Shown here: piece after piece, positions 1 to 16,645 of the stretch
Layout: each line of letters begins with the position of its first letter
How positions within the stretch are numbered: the stretch's first letter is position 1
Source: Escherichia coli
Lineage (GTDB): Bacteria > Pseudomonadota > Gammaproteobacteria > Enterobacterales > Enterobacteriaceae
Reading direction: 5' to 3' (one strand)
Length of the DNA: 16,645 nt
NCBI RefSeq assembly: GCF_003334355.1
Contig: NZ_QOWP01000049.1
Position numbers and translations under genes: made by a program
The notes under the pieces: generated by a model
What the model was told of the DNA's origin: nothing
The model's database searches: none
Seen by the model: only the letters and a program-made list of their open reading frames with translations

Positions 1-125
1 TGCAGTTGCCATGTTTTACGGCAGTGAGAGCAGAGATAGCGCTGATGTCCGGCAGTGCTTTTGCCGTTACGCACCACCCCGTCAGTAGCTGAACAGGAGG
101 GACAGCTGATAGAAACAGAAGCCAC
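1..125 (-). CDS. insA: IS1 InsA, N-terminal 41 codons (partial, runs off window start)
   Basis: Minus-strand translation from GTG at 125..123 gives [41 protein letters not shown], matching the IS1 InsA N-terminus from memory. Confidence 0.8.
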
Positions 126-180
126 TGGAGCACCTCAAAAACACCATCATACACTAAATCAGTAAGTTGGCAGCATCACC
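1..180 (-). mobile_element. IS1 insertion sequence, partial (terminus at 180, remainder lies beyond window start)
   Basis: Reverse complement of 158-180 is GGTGATGCTGCCAACTTACTGAT, which I recognise as the IS1 terminal inverted repeat, followed by the insA 5' region. Host AT-rich sequence begins at 181. Confidence 0.85.
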
Positions 181-1188
181 CGATTTTCTTATGGGATTAC
201 CGGTGGGAATGTTTTTGTTAGTTGTCTTGTTTTTGTTTTTTTCTATTTCGCAATCTTAATGACAGTGTCAGCAGATATGCCGCTTGTTGACTGTGTTTTG
301 ACTTTGTCACTGTTGGTTTTGCTTATATTTATGGCAGCAAAAGGACTGCGTTATCAGGCCTTGATGACTAGTCTCAAAGGCGTAAGATTTAGTTTTAATT
401 GCTCTTTGAAAGGGTTCTGGTGGGTAACCTTTTTCTTGCCGATTTTAATGGCCATTGGGATGGGGACTGTTTTCTTTATCTCGACAAAGATGCTACATGC
501 CAATAGTTCAAGTAGTGTTATTATATCTGTGGTTCTGATGGCAATAGTTGGTATTGTTTCCATTGGTATTTTTAATGGTACTTTATATAGTCTGGTAATG
601 AGTTTTCTCTGGAGCAATACCAGTTTCGGTATACATCGTTTCAAGGTGAAATTAGATACTACGTATTGTATAAAATATGCCATTCTCGCATTTTTAGCTT
701 TATTACCTTTTCTCGCTGTTGCTGGTTATATTATCTTCGATCAAATATTAAATGCGTATGATAGTTCTGTGTATGCAAATGATGATATTGAGAATTTACA
801 GCAATTTATGGAAATGCAACGTAAAATGATAATCGCGCAGTTAATCTATTATTTTGGGATTGCTGTTAGCACCAGTTATTTAACGGTGTCGTTGCGAAAT
901 CATTTTATGAGCAACCTGTCACTGAATGATGGGCGTATTCGTTTTCGCTCAACTTTAACATACCACGGTATGCTTTATCGCATGTGTGCGTTGGTGGTGA
1001 TATCCGGGATTACGGGCGGTCTGGCTTATCCACTGCTGAAAATATGGATGATTGACTGGCAGGCAAAAAATACGTATTTGCTGGGCGATTTGGATGACCT
1101 TCCTTTAATCAATAAAGAAGAACAACCAGATAAAGGCTTCTTAGCCAGTATTTCACGGGGAATTATGCCTTCTTTACCATTTCTGTAA
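181..1188 (+). pseudogene. 3' portion of a multi-pass inner membrane protein gene (YjgN-like by position), 5' end severed by IS1
   Basis: Frame-1 reading frame is open from the IS1 junction at 181 to TAA at 1186-1188; first ATG is at 259 (309-aa ORF in track). Highly hydrophobic, visibly AT-rich. Convergent with valS, where K-12 carries yjgN (synteny from memory). No start codon or RBS at the junction. Confidence 0.6.
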
Positions 1189-1241: not shown

Positions 1242-4097
1242 TTACAGCGCGGCGATAACAGCCTGCTGTTCAATCAGCTTCGCTTTCGCTTCCGCATAGC
1301 CTTCCAGCTTCTCACGCTCTTTCGCGATGACCGCTTCCGGTGCGCGGGCGACAAAGCCTTCATTCGCCAGCTTGTTCTCGATGCGGCTGATTTCGCCTTC
1401 GATCTTCGCCACTTCTTTCGCCAGACGCGCCAGCTCATCTTCTTTGTTAATGAGGCCAGCCATCGGGATCAGCAGCTCTGCGCCGTCGATAATCTTCGTA
1501 ACGGAAACCGGACCTTTGTCATCGGCAGGCAGCACGGTGATGCTTTCCAGACGCGCCAGGGTTTGCAGGAAGCCACGGTTTTCATTTACGCGACGTTCTG
1601 CATCCGCGCTGCAACCACGCAGCAGCAGCTCCAGCGGTTTGCCCGGCGCGATGTTCATTTCTGCACGGATGTTACGTACCGCAACGATCGCCTGCTTCAG
1701 CCACTCGGTGTCGGCCAGCGCCGCTTCATCAACCTGAGATGCATCATACTGCGGGAACGGTTGCAGCATGATGGTGTCGGCAGTGATACCGCAAAGTACT
1801 TTCACACGCTGCCAGATGGTTTCGGTGATGAACGGAATGATCGGATGCGCGAGGCGCAGCAGACCTTCCAGTACAGTCACCAGCGTATGGCGAGTACCGC
1901 GCAGTTCTGCTTCGGTGCCACCGTTCATTACCGGCTTGGTCAGCTCGAGATACCAGTCACAGAACTGGTTCCAGGTGAACTCATACAGAATGCCTGCGGC
2001 GATATCGAAGCGGAAGCTGTCCAGCGCTTCGCGGTACGCTTTGATGGTCTGGTTGAACTCCGCCAGAATCCAGCGGTCCGCCAGCGACAGCGTCATTTCG
2101 CCGCCGTTGAAGCCGCAATCCTGACCTTCTGTGTTCATCAGCACAAAGCGGCTGGCGTTCCACAGCTTGTTACAGAAGTTACGGTAACCTTCCAGGCGCT
2201 TCATATCCCAGTTGATGTCACGACCGGTAGACGCCAGCGCCGCCAGGGTGAAGCGCAGGGCATCGGTACCGTGCGGCTCAATGCCGTTCGGGAACTGTTT
2301 CTCGGTGCGCTTACGGATTTTGTCCGCCAGCTGCGGCTGCATCATATTGCCGGTACGTTTTTCCAGCAGTTCTGGCAGCGAAATACCGTCAACCATATCC
2401 AGCGGGTCGATAACGTTACCCTTGGATTTGGACATCTTCTGGCCTTCGTCGTCACGAATCAGACCGGTCATGTAAACAGTGTGGAACGGCACCTGCGGTT
2501 TGCCATTTTCATCTTTGATGAAGTGCATGGTCATCATGATCATGCGGGCAATCCAGAAGAAGATGATGTCGAAACCAGATACCATCACGCTGGTTGGGTG
2601 GAACTGACGCAGGGCGTCGGTGTTTTCCGGCCAGCCAAGGGTAGAGAAGGTCCACAGCGCAGAAGAGAACCAGGTGTCGAGAACGTCTTCGTCCTGACGC
2701 AGGGCAACGTCGGCACCGAGGTTATTTTCCTTGCGCACTTCTTCTTCGTTGCGGCCAACATAAACATTACCCGCTTCGTCATACCATGCCGGGATACGGT
2801 GACCCCACCACAGCTGACGAGAGATACACCAGTCCTGAATATCGCGCATCCAGGAGAAATACATGTTTTCGTACTGCTTCGGTACGAACTGAATGTCGCC
2901 GTTCTCAACCGCTTCAACCGCCGGTTTCGCCAGTACATCGGCACGCACGTACCACTGGTCGGTCAGCATTGGTTCGATAACTACGCCGCCACGGTCGCCG
3001 TAAGGAACGGTCAGGTCGTGCGGTTTAATTTCTTCCAGCAGGCCGAGTGCGTCAACCGCAGCAACGACTGCTTTACGTGCGGCAAAACGCTCCAGTTTCT
3101 GGAATTCTGCCGGGATCTCGCTGGAATAAACGTCAGATTCGTTACCTTTGGTATCGAACACCTGGGCGCTTTCACGGATATCGCCGTCAAAGGTCAGGAT
3201 GTTGATCATCGGCAGGGCGTGACGTTTACCGACTTCATAGTCGTTAAAGTCGTGCGCCGGGGTGATCTTCACGCAGCCGGTGCCTTTTTCCATGTCGGCG
3301 TGTTCGTCGCCAACGATCGGAATACGACGGTTAACCAGCGGTAGAATGACATATTTGCCAATCAGGTCTTTGTAACGCGGATCTTCCGGGTTAACGGCTA
3401 CACCGGTATCGCCCAGCAGGGTTTCCGGACGGGTAGTCGCAACCACCAGGTAATCTTTACCGTCTGCGGTTTTCGCACCGTCAGCCAGCGGATAGCGGAT
3501 GTGCCACATCGAACCTTTCGATTCGCGGTTTTCCACTTCCAGGTCAGAGATAGCGGTGCGCAGTTTCGGGTCCCAGTTTACCAGGCGTTTGCCACGGTAA
3601 ATCAGGTCTTCTTTATACAGACGAACGAAAACTTCTTTCACCGCATTGGACAGGCCTTCGTCCATCGTGAAGCGTTCACGCTCCCAGTCCACGGAGTTGC
3701 CGAGACGGCGCATCTGACGGGTAATGGTGCCGCCGGATTCCGCTTTCCATTCCCAAATTTTGTCGATGAAAGCTTCGCGGCCGTAGTCGTGACGGGTTTT
3801 ACCTTCTTCTGCGGCAATCTTGCGCTCAACGACCATCTGGGTAGCGATCCCGGCGTGGTCAGTACCGACCTGCCACAGGGTGTTTTTGCCCTGCATGCGC
3901 TGATAGCGGATCATGGTATCCATGATGGTTTGCTGGAAGGCGTGACCCATATGCAAACTGCCGGTGACGTTCGGCGGCGGGATCATGATGCAGAAACTTT
4001 CCTGGCTTTCATCGCCATTAGGCTTAAAGTAGCCCTGCTTTTCCCAGTGCTCGTAAAGCGGCTGTTCGATATCTTGTGGGTTATATGTCTTTTCCAT
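1242..4097 (-). CDS. valS: Valine--tRNA ligase (valyl-tRNA synthetase), 951 aa
   Basis: Full-length ORF with class I aaRS HMGH and KMSKS motifs; N-terminus [24 protein letters not shown] matches E. coli ValS from memory. Confidence 0.97.
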
Positions 4098-4540
4098 TAT
4101 TTCCAGGTTGCCGTATTCAGGTTGAAACCAGCCACGCGGTAGGCTTTATAGCGTTCGCGCGCCAGTTGTTTCAGAGAATCTTCATAAGGAACGAAGTCTA
4201 CCACTTCTGTGAAAGCGGTGGCAAAATCTGCAAAGCTTGTTCGCAGACTAATCAATATATCGCGCGGGCTGCTGCTGCGTTTTTGCGGCCAGGCGATCTC
4301 CACCGGCGCACCGCCGCGCGGTCCTTCTCCCGCTAAATTATGCGGAACAAAGCTTTCTGCCGGACGCGCCCACAGGGCTTCATCCAGCCGGTAAGCCTGC
4401 TTTTCATCTTCACAGGCGATGAGCACGCGCTTACCGCTGCGCCAACGTTCTGCGGCAATTTCACACACCAGTTGCTCAACGGCGCTTAAGCCATCGACGG
4501 TGGTGTCATTGTCCAGAAGGTAGAACGTCGCGTTTTTCAT
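4097..4540 (-). CDS. holC: DNA polymerase III chi subunit, 147 aa
   Basis: 147-aa ORF immediately upstream of valS; its stop overlaps the valS ATG by 1 nt (TAATG). Sequence and position match E. coli HolC from memory. Confidence 0.92.
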
Positions 4541-4570
4541 AAATGGGGCTTCTTGTGGTGGATTTAAATA

Positions 4571-4894
<324 letters not shown>

Positions 4895-4895
4895 A

Positions 4896-6673
<1,778 letters not shown>

Positions 6674-10518: not shown

Positions 10519-10617
10519 GAGATTTCCTCCAGTTTCCTGCCTGGAGTATAGGCAACGGCTGTGCACTCTTCACCGCTAAATTCAGCAGATTGCGAGACGC
10601 CTTCCAAAGAGATTTAA

Positions 10618-10644
10618 GTGCCGGGCGACAGGCACCCGGCAAAG
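10618..10644 (-). terminator. Candidate ahr terminator hairpin
   Basis: Inverted repeat TGCCGGG...CCCGGCA just downstream of the ahr stop on the minus strand, followed by a modest U-rich tract. Confidence 0.3.
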
Positions 10645-10647
10645 GGA

Positions 10648-11667
10648 TCAGAAGTCGGCTTTCAGGACCACGCGGTAGCGCGCTTTACCATCGCGTACAT
10701 GCTGGATGGCGTCGTTAATTTTCGACATCGGGAACAGTTCGGTGGTCGGCGCAACCTTGCTGCGGGCGGCAAAACGCATCAGCTTACGCAGCTCATAAGG
10801 CGTGCCGGTAGCAGAACCAGAGATGCTGCGGTCGCCCGCAATTAACGTAAAGGCCGGAACAGACAGCGGCGTGAGAACCGCACCGACCGTATGGAAATTA
10901 CCGCCATAGGTCAGCGCCTCAAAATAAGGCTGCCAGTCGAGGCTGACGTTCACAGTATTGATAATGAGATCAAACTGCCCCGACAGGGCTTTCAGTGCCT
11001 GCGGATCGCGGCTATTCACCACTTTATCGGCACCCATCGCCAGTACTTCCTGCTCTTTCGCCGGATTAGAACTAAAGGCCGTCACCTCGCATCCCATTGC
11101 GTGCAGAAGTTTTATAGCGATATGCCCCAGCCCGCCAATACCAATTACCCCAACGCGGCTGGTAGCAGTGATATGGTGCATCAACAGTGGTTTAAAGACC
11201 GTGATACCGCCGCACAACAGCGGCCCGGCGGACTCGATATCAATATTTTCTGGCAGTGGAATCACCCATTGCCAGTCCGCACGCAACTTCTCGGCAAAGC
11301 CACCGCGATTCATAATCGTCGGCACCGCACCTTGCTCGCAGTTGATCTGATTACCGCTAATACAGGCGTCGCAGTGACCACAGCTACGCGCCGTCCAGCC
11401 AATCCCGACACGCTGACCGACCTGCAAACCTTTATCCTGCGCGGCGCTCCCGAGTGCCACCACGCGCCCAATCACCTCATGCCCGGCAACCAGCGGATAT
11501 TGTGAAAATCCCCATTCGTTATCGATCATCGACAGATCGGAATGACAAATCCCGCAGTAATCCACCTGCACTTCAACATCTTGTGGCTTCAGCTCACCGG
11601 GATCGTACTCATAAACTTCCAGTTCGCCGCCCGCTTCTTTTGCGGCATAGCTTTTTATCATCGACAT
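10648..11667 (-). CDS. ahr: NADPH-dependent aldehyde reductase Ahr (YjgB), Zn-dependent alcohol dehydrogenase family, 339 aa
   Basis: ATG at 11667 ([14 protein letters not shown]) with GAAGGA RBS; zinc-ligand region GHEVIGRV and Rossmann [10 protein letters not shown] motif. The track ORF is 14 codons longer from an upstream ATG without RBS. Confidence 0.9.
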
Positions 11668-12133: not shown

Positions 12134-13399
12134 ATGGCATTAACAGATATCAAAGTCAGAACAGCCAAGCCAACAGATAAGCAATATAAGCTGACTGATG
12201 GTGGCGGTATGCATCTGCTTGTCCATCCAAATGGTTCTAAGTACTGGCGTTTGCAGTACCGTTATGAGGGAAAGCAAAAGATGTTGGCACTTGGGGTTTA
12301 TCCTGAAATCACACTAGCGGATGCCAGAGTACGCCGTGACGAGGCGCGTAAGCTGCTTGCGAATGGAGTCGATCCGGGAGACAAAAAGAAAAATGATAAG
12401 GTTGAACAGAGTAAAGCACGAACCTTTAAAGAAGTCGCGATCGAGTGGCATAGCACCAATAAAAAGTGGTCTGAAGATCACGCCCATCGTGTGCTAAAAA
12501 GTCTGGAAGATAATCTTTTTGCAGCGCTTGGTGAACGTAATATCGCTGAGTTAAAAACTCGAGATTTATTAGCACCCATTAAGGCCGTGGAGATCTCTGG
12601 ACGTCTTGAAGTGGCAGCTCGTCTTCAACAGCGCACTACAGCCATCATGCGCTATGCAGTACAAAGTGGGTTAATTGATTATAACCCGGCACAAGAGATG
12701 GCTGGGGCGGTTGCTTCCTGTAATCGACAACATCGTCCGGCGCTTGAATTAAAGCGCATCCCTGAGTTGCTTACAAAAATAGATAGCTATACTGGTAGGC
12801 CGCTAACCCGATGGGCGACAGAACTCACTTTGCTGATCTTTATTCGGTCCAGTGAGCTGCGTTTTGCTCGCTGGTCAGAGATCGATTTCGAAGCGTCTAT
12901 ATGGACTATCCCACCGGAGCGGGAGCCTATTCCTGGAGTGAAGCATTCCCATAGAGGCTCAAAAATGCGTACAACGCATCTAGTGCCTCTTTCAACGCAA
13001 GCCCTTGCAATTTTAAAGCAGATAAAACAGTTTTGTGGGTCTCATGACTTGATATTTATTGGTGATCACGATTCGCACAAGCCTATGAGTGAAAATACGG
13101 TAAATAGTGCGTTACGGGTCATGGGGTATGATACAAAAGTTGAGGTTTGTGGTCATGGCTTCCGCACAATGGCCTGTAGTTCATTGATCGAATCAGGTTT
13201 GTGGTCTCGTGATGCTGTTGAACGTCAGATGAGCCACATGGAGCGAAATTCAGTGAGGGCCGCGTATATCCATAAAGCAGAACATCTGGAAGAACGGCGA
13301 TTGATGTTGCAATGGTGGGCCGATTTTCTTGATGCGAACCGGGAGAAGGGTATCAGTCCGTTTGAATACGCAAATGTTAACAATCCGCTGAGAAGGTGA
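12134..13399 (+). CDS. P4-type tyrosine recombinase / integrase, 421 aa, apparently intact
   Basis: Full-length ORF immediately 3' of a tRNA gene; GGAGGG RBS 7 nt before the ATG; sequence resembles P4-family integrases from memory; visibly lower GC than the core genes. Confidence 0.9.
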   Translation: MALTDIKVRTAKPTDKQYKLTDGGGMHLLVHPNGSKYWRLQYRYEGKQKMLALGVYPEITLADARVRRDEARKLLANGVDPGDKKKNDKVEQSKARTFKEVAIEWHSTNKKWSEDHAHRVLKSLEDNLFAALGERNIAELKTRDLLAPIKAVEISGRLEVAARLQQRTTAIMRYAVQSGLIDYNPAQEMAGAVASCNRQHRPALELKRIPELLTKIDSYTGRPLTRWATELTLLIFIRSSELRFARWSEIDFEASIWTIPPEREPIPGVKHSHRGSKMRTTHLVPLSTQALAILKQIKQFCGSHDLIFIGDHDSHKPMSENTVNSALRVMGYDTKVEVCGHGFRTMACSSLIESGLWSRDAVERQMSHMERNSVRAAYIHKAEHLEERRLMLQWWADFLDANREKGISPFEYANVNNPLRR

Positions 13400-14061: not shown

Positions 14062-15060
14062 TTACTGTTCAGCTTTTTCAACAACAAAACCATTTTGCCG
14101 TACAAACTCAATCAAGAGTTCAATATTAACAATGCCCCATTGATTAGAAATAGCAACAATTTCACCAGAAGGAAGTGTAATCAACGCATCTTCATTAATA
14201 TGATAGCGACTCTTTTGCTTCTCTGGTATCTGATCGACAAGCATAACCGTCCGTTTTTTAAAGTCTTCACTTAACCCATTTATTAAATCATTATAACTTG
14301 CAGGATTAAATTGATTTATCCAATCGCGTAATAATTCAAGCGCTAATTTACGCTTATTAAGTTCTTTATCTTTATATATATACCACGTATAGTCCTTCTC
14401 TTTTTTCTGACTGCTAATTAGCTGCTCATCACGTTTTTCACGAAATTTAACTTGATATTCTTCCAATTCAGGAACCGGTATGATTTGCTCTGCATTGATC
14501 AGAACATCATCATTAAATCTATAAGGCGTCAGACGAACACATCGAATGTCTACCCCCTTATCTCTTAACCAAATCGCAGTGGTAGTCAGTTCCTTGCTAA
14601 AATCCGATGAAGCCAAAACAATTCTGATATCTTTTCCGAAATCAACAAGCTCAGTTTCATCCAGCTCAACAAATTCAAGTATTTTTTCTTTCGCATCGGC
14701 ATCGCAGTTTTGTTTTTTCAAATACGTCTGGAAATATTCACATGCTTTCGCAAAACTCATTGTGGAAATCATCGCTGCATATCGTAGTGCCTGTAACTCC
14801 ATATGCGCACCAGTTTCATCACGTTTTAATTCGATAACCACTAAATTTGCCTGTTTATCGATTGCCAATAAATCAATTCGCCGACGGCTATCTTCCCAGT
14901 CAGAAAACTCTTCGGAAATCACCAGACAATCAGGAGCAATAATATCTATGTTTTTTTTGATTGCTTCCTGTAAATCATAACGTTCCTGTAATCCTTCCAG
15001 AGTAAAGGTCGTTTTTTCTAAAGCATGTAGTTCTTTATTTGCGATATTGTACAGCGCCAC
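14062..15060 (-). CDS. Uncharacterised protein with N-terminal RecB-like PD-(D/E)xK nuclease motif, 332 aa (GTG start)
   Basis: Uninterrupted 332-codon ORF with AGGAAG RBS; very AT-rich. Residues 61-94 RIDLLAIDKQANLVVIELKRDETGAHMELQALRY give D-x(n)-ExK plus QxxxY. The C-terminal ~200 aa has no motif I recognise. Confidence 0.75.
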   Translation of the reverse strand: MALYNIANKELHALEKTTFTLEGLQERYDLQEAIKKNIDIIAPDCLVISEEFSDWEDSRRRIDLLAIDKQANLVVIELKRDETGAHMELQALRYAAMISTMSFAKACEYFQTYLKKQNCDADAKEKILEFVELDETELVDFGKDIRIVLASSDFSKELTTTAIWLRDKGVDIRCVRLTPYRFNDDVLINAEQIIPVPELEEYQVKFREKRDEQLISSQKKEKDYTWYIYKDKELNKRKLALELLRDWINQFNPASYNDLINGLSEDFKKRTVMLVDQIPEKQKSRYHINEDALITLPSGEIVAISNQWGIVNIELLIEFVRQNGFVVEKAEQ

Positions 15061-15959: not shown

Positions 15960-16558
15960 TAGATCCCGTTCTTGAATATCGCCTGTCTCAAATCCAGAGT
16001 CGCATTAACGAAGATCGCTTCCTCAAAAATAACGGCTCCGGAAATGAAATTGGTTTTTGGATCTTTGATTATCCCGCGCAGTGCGAACTGCAGGTACGGG
16101 AGCATTTGAAGTATCTGCTCCGGCATCTGGAAAAGGACCATAAATTTGCCTGTCTGAATGTCTTCCAAATCATCATCGATATGCTCAATGAACGCGGCCT
16201 TTTCGAGCGCGTCTGCCAGCAGGAAGTCAAAGTGGGTACTGAGACGCTGAAAAAGCAGCTTGCTGGTCCGTTAAATCAGAAAAAAATCGCTGATTTTATA
16301 GCGAAAAAAGTCGATCTGGCTGCCCAGGATTTTGTCATCCTTACCGGCATGGGCAACGCCTGGCCATTAGTACGCGGTCATGAACTGATGAGTGCCTTGC
16401 AGGATGTCATGGGGTTCACCCCACTGCTGATGTTTTATCCTGGCACCTACAGCGGGTACAACCTTTCCCCGCTCACAGACACCGGTTCACAAAATTATTA
16501 TCGCGCTTTCAGACTGGTACCAGATACGGGACCCGCAGCAACATTGAATCCTCAATGA
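15956..16558 (+). CDS. brxB: BrxB-like protein (DUF1788-type), 200 aa
   Basis: GTG start at 15956 with GGAGGG RBS, overlapping the upstream stop by 4 nt; ~200 aa; followed by a third co-directional gene. Assignment by architecture. Confidence 0.55.
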   Translation: MIDPVLEYRLSQIQSRINEDRFLKNNGSGNEIGFWIFDYPAQCELQVREHLKYLLRHLEKDHKFACLNVFQIIIDMLNERGLFERVCQQEVKVGTETLKKQLAGPLNQKKIADFIAKKVDLAAQDFVILTGMGNAWPLVRGHELMSALQDVMGFTPLLMFYPGTYSGYNLSPLTDTGSQNYYRAFRLVPDTGPAATLNPQ

Positions 16559-16621
16559 AGAGCATAATGAACCGCCCCGGAAATCCTGGAGACTAAACTC
16601 CCTGAGAAAGAGGTAAACAGG

Positions 16622-16645
16622 ATGACTAAAAATACTCGTTTTTCC
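16622..16645 (+). CDS. 5' end of the third gene of the cluster (MTKNTRFS...), runs off the window; would be brxC (large ATPase) if the BREX assignment holds
   Basis: ATG at 16622 preceded by AAAGAGG RBS, 63 nt after the brxB-like stop; only 8 codons visible. Confidence 0.35.

Follow-up and report, generated by a model that had tools for sequence, protein, structure and literature searches.

IS1 insertion in yjgN beside valS in Escherichia coli

Insertion sequence IS1 generates target duplications of 8–9 bp and prefers AT-rich DNA, with no clear motif (PMC5009759), and yjgN is one of the Escherichia coli genes that it is known to disrupt, as in the K-12 strains NCM3722 and LS5218 (PMC5699524). 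Here we analyse a stretch of 16,645 nucleotides of E. coli DNA (contig NZ_QOWP01000049.1, assembly GCF_003334355.1; hereafter the window) that begins within an IS1 copy joined to the 3′ part of yjgN. Gene and element are the same as in NCM3722 and LS5218, but the site differs: the published insertion lies at MG1655 coordinate 4480807, which is yjgN nucleotide (nt) 1078, and the present one at nt 190–198, which rules out that the two are a single insertion. Compared with IS1 of the IS1A/IS1B type from E. coli and Shigella (768 bp), the element has the same repeats, the same insA N-terminus, a 9-bp duplication and an AT-rich target, with nothing material different; set beside the IS-disrupted pseudogenes of IS-rich E. 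coli and Shigella genomes, the locus is an ordinary insertional pseudogene, with contigs broken at the IS copies. Disruption of yjgN by IS1 is already known and the case is a textbook IS1 pseudogene; the one mildly new point is the repeated use of a single 9-bp site, in both orientations.

The IS1 end and the truncated gene

Window positions 1–180 (minus strand) are the left, insA-proximal end of IS1, comprising the first 180 of its 768 bp, and the element runs leftward out of the window. Compared with full IS1 copies, these positions are identical at 179 of 180 bases in strain E47, the single mismatch falling at window position 54, and at 180 of 180 in D72; RefSeq labels both copies as IS1A-family transposase with a programmed frameshift. 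The terminal repeats of IS1 are ~23 bp long and start GGTGATGCTGCC or GGTAATGACTCC. The left repeat (IRL) is in the window at 158–180, where GGTGATGCTGCCAACTTACTGAT, read on the minus strand, is an exact pattern match and the element ends at 180, and the right repeat (IRR) is present on contig NRWB01000195.1 and in E47; the IRL junction is shared with E47, D72 and GCA_964251865. The 5′ part of insA, encoding the zinc-finger N-terminus of InsA, occupies 1–125 (minus strand) with a GTG start at 125–123 and is cut off by the window edge. The reverse strand of 3–125 translates to 41 aa of the InsA N-terminus, which matches NCBIfam NF050000 (IS1/IS1595 N-terminal zinc-binding domain) with 43.5 bits, against a curated cut-off of 28 bits. 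Within IRL, a promoter-like site at 146–173 (minus strand; CTGCCA-16-TATGAT) is directed into IS1 and away from the yjgN remnant; it is located where the insA promoter is expected, and we take it to be that promoter.

Full IS1 copies at the identical junction measure 768 bp in six genomes and carry the annotation ‘programmed frameshift’; the window holds 180 bp, with the insB′ part beyond its edge, and the copy of the window lineage at this junction is divided between two contigs. In loci L017 and L018 the transposase of the IS1 copy matches the Pfam families Zn_ribbon_InsA, HTH_Tnp_IS1 and DDE_Tnp_IS1. All hallmarks of IS1 that are testable in the window or near it are present, and the exact IRL, the 179–180 of 180 identity and the NF050000 match confirm a preliminary description of the window, which had read positions 1–180 as an IS1 end on the minus strand reading outward.

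The junction of IS1 with yjgN lies exactly at 180/181. Intact yjgN has 1,197 nt and encodes 398 aa, annotated as ‘YjgN family protein’ in complete genomes including K-12 MG1655 (b4257), and alignment to intact alleles places window position 181 at nt 190, the first base of codon 64. What remains at 181–1188 (plus strand) is the 3′ fragment of this gene for a DUF898 inner-membrane protein, with codons 64–398 and the stop codon, a pseudogene remnant in an open frame; codons 1–63 are missing. The earlier proposals that the frame begins at the junction without a start codon, and that the intact gene is yjgN of about 398 aa with some 60 codons lost, both held: the exact values are codon 64 and 63 missing codons, with the first in-frame start at 259, and 398 aa is the length in MG1655 and others. 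Over 181–1185, the 335 codons of the remnant differ by a single amino acid from residues 64–398 of a 99.9%-identical intact allele, and this near-undamaged state argues for a recent insertion.

Had IS1 instead landed upstream of the gene, the true yjgN start would lie at or near 181 or 259. This scenario is excluded, because the intact alleles (MG1655, AH21I008, A3 and several other fetched genomes) all encode 398 aa from a start that lies 189 nt before the equivalent of window position 181, and because these upstream 189 nt are present across IS1 in E47. The domain evidence points the same way: Pfam DUF898 (PF05987) matches residues 13–369 of an intact allele (E = 6.2e-47), so that the missing 63 codons are part of the domain and IS1 lies inside the gene. 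The precomputed Pfam match of the 309-aa open reading frame (ORF) that the remnant retains is likewise DUF898, while among NCBIfam models none matched the remnant.

The two halves of yjgN and their linkage

The preliminary description had predicted a target duplication of 8–9 bp beginning at 181, and one of 9 bp is found: CGATTTTCT flanks IS1 in complete genomes and is single in intact alleles. Its right copy occupies 181–189 (plus strand; yjgN nt 190–198) and its left copy is on NRWB01000195.1. E47, which is identical to the window at 140 of 140 bases across the junction, has the layout ...ggacaa CGATTTTCT / GGTAATGACTCC...768 bp IS1...CAGCATCACC / CGATTTTCT tatggg..., and D72 and GCA_964251865 also have CGATTTTCT at both ends of IS1. 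The intact allele reads ...ggacaaCGATTTTCTtatggg..., and the comparison with uninterrupted alleles that had been proposed, in which window position 181 aligns with nt 190, gives one copy of CGATTTTCT. Over 3,700 flanking bases, E47 differs from the window at 42, mostly in valS; the best match to the window among complete E. coli genomes is 98.7% identical.

The 309-aa remnant ORF, whose exact protein has been called on no more than 3 contigs of the public collection, served as an exact-match key to contigs related to the window; the exact ValS protein, indexed in 35,087 blocks, does not discriminate between lineages. One contig of the lineage, NRWB01000056.1 (assembly GCA_003293365.1), has 2 mismatches to the window in 11,000 bases and likewise breaks inside IS1. 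A second key, a 92-aa hybrid ORF made of 66 YjgN residues and 26 codons into the right IS1 end, led to NRWB01000195.1 of the same assembly, which carries the gene for ornithine carbamoyltransferase (OTCase), rraB, yjgM and yjgN nt 1–198; this fragment closes with CGATTTTCT, and after it comes the IS1 right repeat GGTAATGACTCC... Both halves of yjgN, each with a copy of CGATTTTCT and the matching IS1 end, exist in the window lineage; the expectation that the gene is split with its 5′ part beyond the element was thus met by a 5′ fragment on NRWB01000195.1 as well as across IS1 in E47.

We propose that IS1 inserted into yjgN at nt 190–198 with duplication of CGATTTTCT, splitting the gene into an allele that is most likely null and leaving the neighbours unaffected, a reading to which we assign a probability of about 0.93. 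Transposition into yjgN of an E. coli strain would have proceeded from 9-bp staggered nicks at nt 190–198, and the 398-codon gene would have been divided into a 5′ piece of codons 1–66 and a 3′ piece of codons 64–398. The 5′ piece now reads into the right end of IS1 as the 92-aa hybrid ORF, and the insA end adjoins the 3′ piece, so that IS1 transcription is directed away from the remnant.

Both ends of the window are contig breaks at IS copies. Its start inside IS1 reflects the failure of short-read assemblies to pass through repeated IS elements, and its right end lies within an IS3-family element (IS1203/IS629-like), the first ~78 bases of which, at 16568–16645, are 91–97% identical to annotated copies. 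Linkage across such contig ends, each of which marks an IS copy, is unproven.

The IS1 beside the remnant might by now be a recombinant junction, produced by inversion or deletion between IS1 copies, in which case the 5′ fragment would no longer lie directly across it. NRWB01000195.1, from the same lineage, has inverted IS1 ends on both sides: at nt 1–166 and 2758–2902, with both IRRs facing inward, they bracket a 2.6-kb segment (OTCase gene, rraB, yjgM and the yjgN 5′ fragment) in a layout that resembles a composite transposon. Recombination between two inverted IS1 copies could flip this segment, and its present order is unprovable from draft contigs; the second IS1, downstream of the OTCase gene, is absent from E47. 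Rearrangement by IS1 has precedents at this locus, in that GCA_900094025.1 (L017, nt 4199–6621) has the same yjgN 5′ junction followed by IS1 and then an unrelated sulfatase gene, D72 and CEA106S have IS1-associated deletions within yjgN, and a ~20-kb inversion in Shigella sonnei covers the yjgN locus with IS1 (PMC12795559). We nevertheless consider a recombinant junction unlikely, because both halves with CGATTTTCT and matching ends (IRR on the 5′ half, IRL on the 3′ half) are in the assembly, which makes the simple arrangement the most economical, and because E47 and GCA_964251865 are contiguous and have that simple arrangement. Even if it were true, the origin by insertion and the disruption of yjgN would be unchanged.

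Fate of the remnant and its surroundings

The 3′ piece has been left without the native promoter, the ribosome-binding site and the start codon, and what it encodes without the first FxFxG motif and transmembrane helix 1; with these losses the allele is most likely null. It lacks what an intact gene has, namely 398 codons, a start of its own and the upstream region. In the yjgN frame a TAA stands at 163–165 inside IS1, and the next ATG, GTG or TTG is found at 259, an ATG that corresponds to Met90 of intact YjgN and opens the longest ORF in the remnant (309 aa; 259–1188, plus strand). No Shine–Dalgarno sequence precedes this ATG, where the upstream sequence is tttctatttcgcaatcttaATG and the immediate one tttctatttcgcaatctta. 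A consensus promoter scan, itself crude, reported no plus-strand promoter-like site before 497, and the sole such site near the junction is the inward IS1 site on the minus strand. The pair TTGGCA (167–172) and TATGGG, 17 nt apart across the IS1/yjgN junction, was considered as an outward or hybrid promoter and rejected, the conserved final T being absent from TATGGG and the scan not having reported the pair. Because IS1 exerts strong polarity, transcripts started at the native yjgN promoter are unlikely to continue through the element.

That the ATG at 259 might allow a truncated product was also part of the preliminary description. The codon is the first in-frame start and its ORF is open, but it has neither a Shine–Dalgarno sequence nor a promoter-like site; judged by sequence alone, weak expression of a 309-aa product from Met90 is conceivable. 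For the truncated gene to be functional, a 309-aa protein would have to be made from ATG 259 through fortuitous transcription or read-through across IS1. The ORF at 259–1188 is open and nearly undamaged, although recent insertion explains this equally well. The hydropathy scan places peak 1 (TM1), which is lost, at residues 25–43 and peak 2 at residues 74–92, with Met90 at the end of peak 2; judged from these peaks, loss of two transmembrane helices would keep the membrane orientation of the rest of YjgN. FxF-type motifs lie at residues 15, 133 and 217, and YjgN looks as though it is built of repeated units, each a motif with a helix pair, so that a shortened version might still fold. Yet translation would begin without a Shine–Dalgarno sequence, positions 1–497 have no plus-strand promoter-like site, and IS1 transcription runs the opposite way; moreover, with DUF898 starting at residue 13, a product from Met90 would be missing 77 residues of the domain. 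RefSeq marks the yjgN remnants as pseudogenes, the E47 counterpart being annotated ‘DUF898 family protein, missing N-terminus’, which also speaks against a functional truncation. We therefore hold a functional truncated protein to be highly unlikely, and the null allele remains our reading.

Gene order is OTCase gene–rraB–yjgM–yjgN–valS–holC–pepA in all fetched genomes. Here valS, the convergent neighbour of yjgN, is at 1242–4097 (minus strand) and is followed by holC and pepA. A two-way terminator hairpin at 1197–1222, with an 11-bp GC-rich stem and T-runs on both strands, separates yjgN from valS. With valS convergent behind this terminator and yjgM transcribed divergently, the insertion should have no polar effect on either gene, and we infer that it is close to neutral.

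Several features farther along the window were observed in passing. The interval between holC and pepA contains three tandem 98-nt units of the REP/BIME type (4571–4864), two of which reach the Rfam gathering score for naRNA4 (RF02564), and inside pepA, on the opposite strand, an antisense-RNA match to Rfam Ysr276 (RF02850) scores 174.7 bits (5655–5849, plus strand). At 10520–10650, yjgR is directly followed by ahr, and the idnRTODK (L-idonate) genes are absent, as in A3 and TF5; in many other E. coli genomes they lie between yjgR and ahr, and the matching region there is 21 kb. The segment 11863–16558 is an integrated defence island at leuX, with a tRNA-Leu(CAA) at the leuX position, a tyrosine integrase (12134–13399), an HNH endonuclease remnant, a hypothetical gene (14062–15060, minus strand) and then brxA and brxB of a BREX-1 system. 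Immediately past the brxB stop at 16558, at the place where strain A3 has the beginning of brxC, stands the IS3-family element, which may split the BREX-1 defence operon between these two genes.

yjgN as a recurrent target of IS1

The IS1 ends in 18 fetched loci were mapped onto yjgN coordinates. Complete E. coli genomes have IS1 at 13 different positions within yjgN or shortly upstream of it, namely nt 190–198 and 12 others. The mapped insertions lie at nt −190 to −182 (ETEC1746), 7–15 (200088), 111–119 (MRE162), 129–137 (MSB1_1D), 426–434 (B2C), 491–499 (162.2), 513–521 (an ST131 strain), 538–546 (2017.10.01CC), 669–677 (SWYHX138) and 821–828 (Ec1120); IS1 deletion junctions are at nt 807 and 1169 in CEA106S and at 546 and 1169 for the second copy in D72, and the published K-12 insertion of NCM3722 and LS5218 is at nt 1078 (PMC5699524). 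yjgN is thus a recurrent IS1 target. Its GC content is 37.2%, falling to 33% within 50 bp on either side of the insertion site, compared with 50.1% for the window and 55% for valS, and an AT-rich yjgN fits the reported preference of IS1 for AT-rich DNA (PMC5009759).

At nt 190–198, the alleles of E47, D72 and GCA_964251865 share both the 9-bp target and the orientation of the window, D72 having in addition a second IS1 and a deletion in the gene, whereas PRO_A-1412, MLI023K1/K2 and EC23HZZ201 have the same CGATTTTCT duplication with IS1 in the opposite orientation and must represent independent insertions. Alleles of both orientations have fragment lengths of 198 and 1,008 nt. Homologous recombination cannot exchange the ends of IS1 between flanks, so the site must have been hit at least twice independently to give opposite orientations. 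Alleles of both orientations are found on two flanking haplotypes, separated by 14–18 differences in 850 bases, and D72 represents a third; this distribution suggests that the site may have been hit four or five times independently, unless recombination moved alleles between backgrounds. In the public collection, the hybrid ORF of the opposite orientation is indexed in 94 blocks and that of the window orientation is on ~18 contigs.

Whether nt 190–198 is more than one site among many in a favoured gene is a separate matter. With two certain events among ~14 mapped, coincidence at the same site has a probability of ~6% on a uniform model, which is a rough estimate. We lean, with some reserve, towards a true site-specific hotspot of IS1 at CGATTTTCT and its surroundings of 33% GC. 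If that is so, and IS1 is guided there by the local structure of the DNA or by a host protein bound to it, the site could be a natural model for IS1 target choice.

Old reports tie IS1 hotspots to homology with the element. As a side observation, the 5′ junction GATTTTCT/GGT is identical over 11 bases to an internal IS1 segment, GATTTTCTGGT (L001, 2402–2415 and 2958–2969); this identity is probably a coincidence.

We know of no function for YjgN. By megablast, ~15% of complete E. coli genomes (~835) match the yjgN of the window only at the valS end; for a chromosomal gene with conserved genes on either side, yjgN shows unusual polymorphism. An argument for dispensability that took these ~835 genomes to be without yjgN was dropped, since one of them that was fetched, TUM13773, has a divergent YjgN-family allele of 395 aa (L040, nt 2311–3498).

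For annotation, these results mean that the remnant ORF should be flagged as a pseudogene remnant and not as a 309-aa membrane protein. Independent insertions at this one site, in both orientations, mean that the yjgN::IS1 junction could be used as a lineage marker in typing only with caution. To the study of transposition, the reuse of the 9-bp site and the clustering of IS1 in the AT-rich yjgN offer a small natural data set on target choice. Natural null alleles in many lineages suggest that yjgN is dispensable, at least in some niches.
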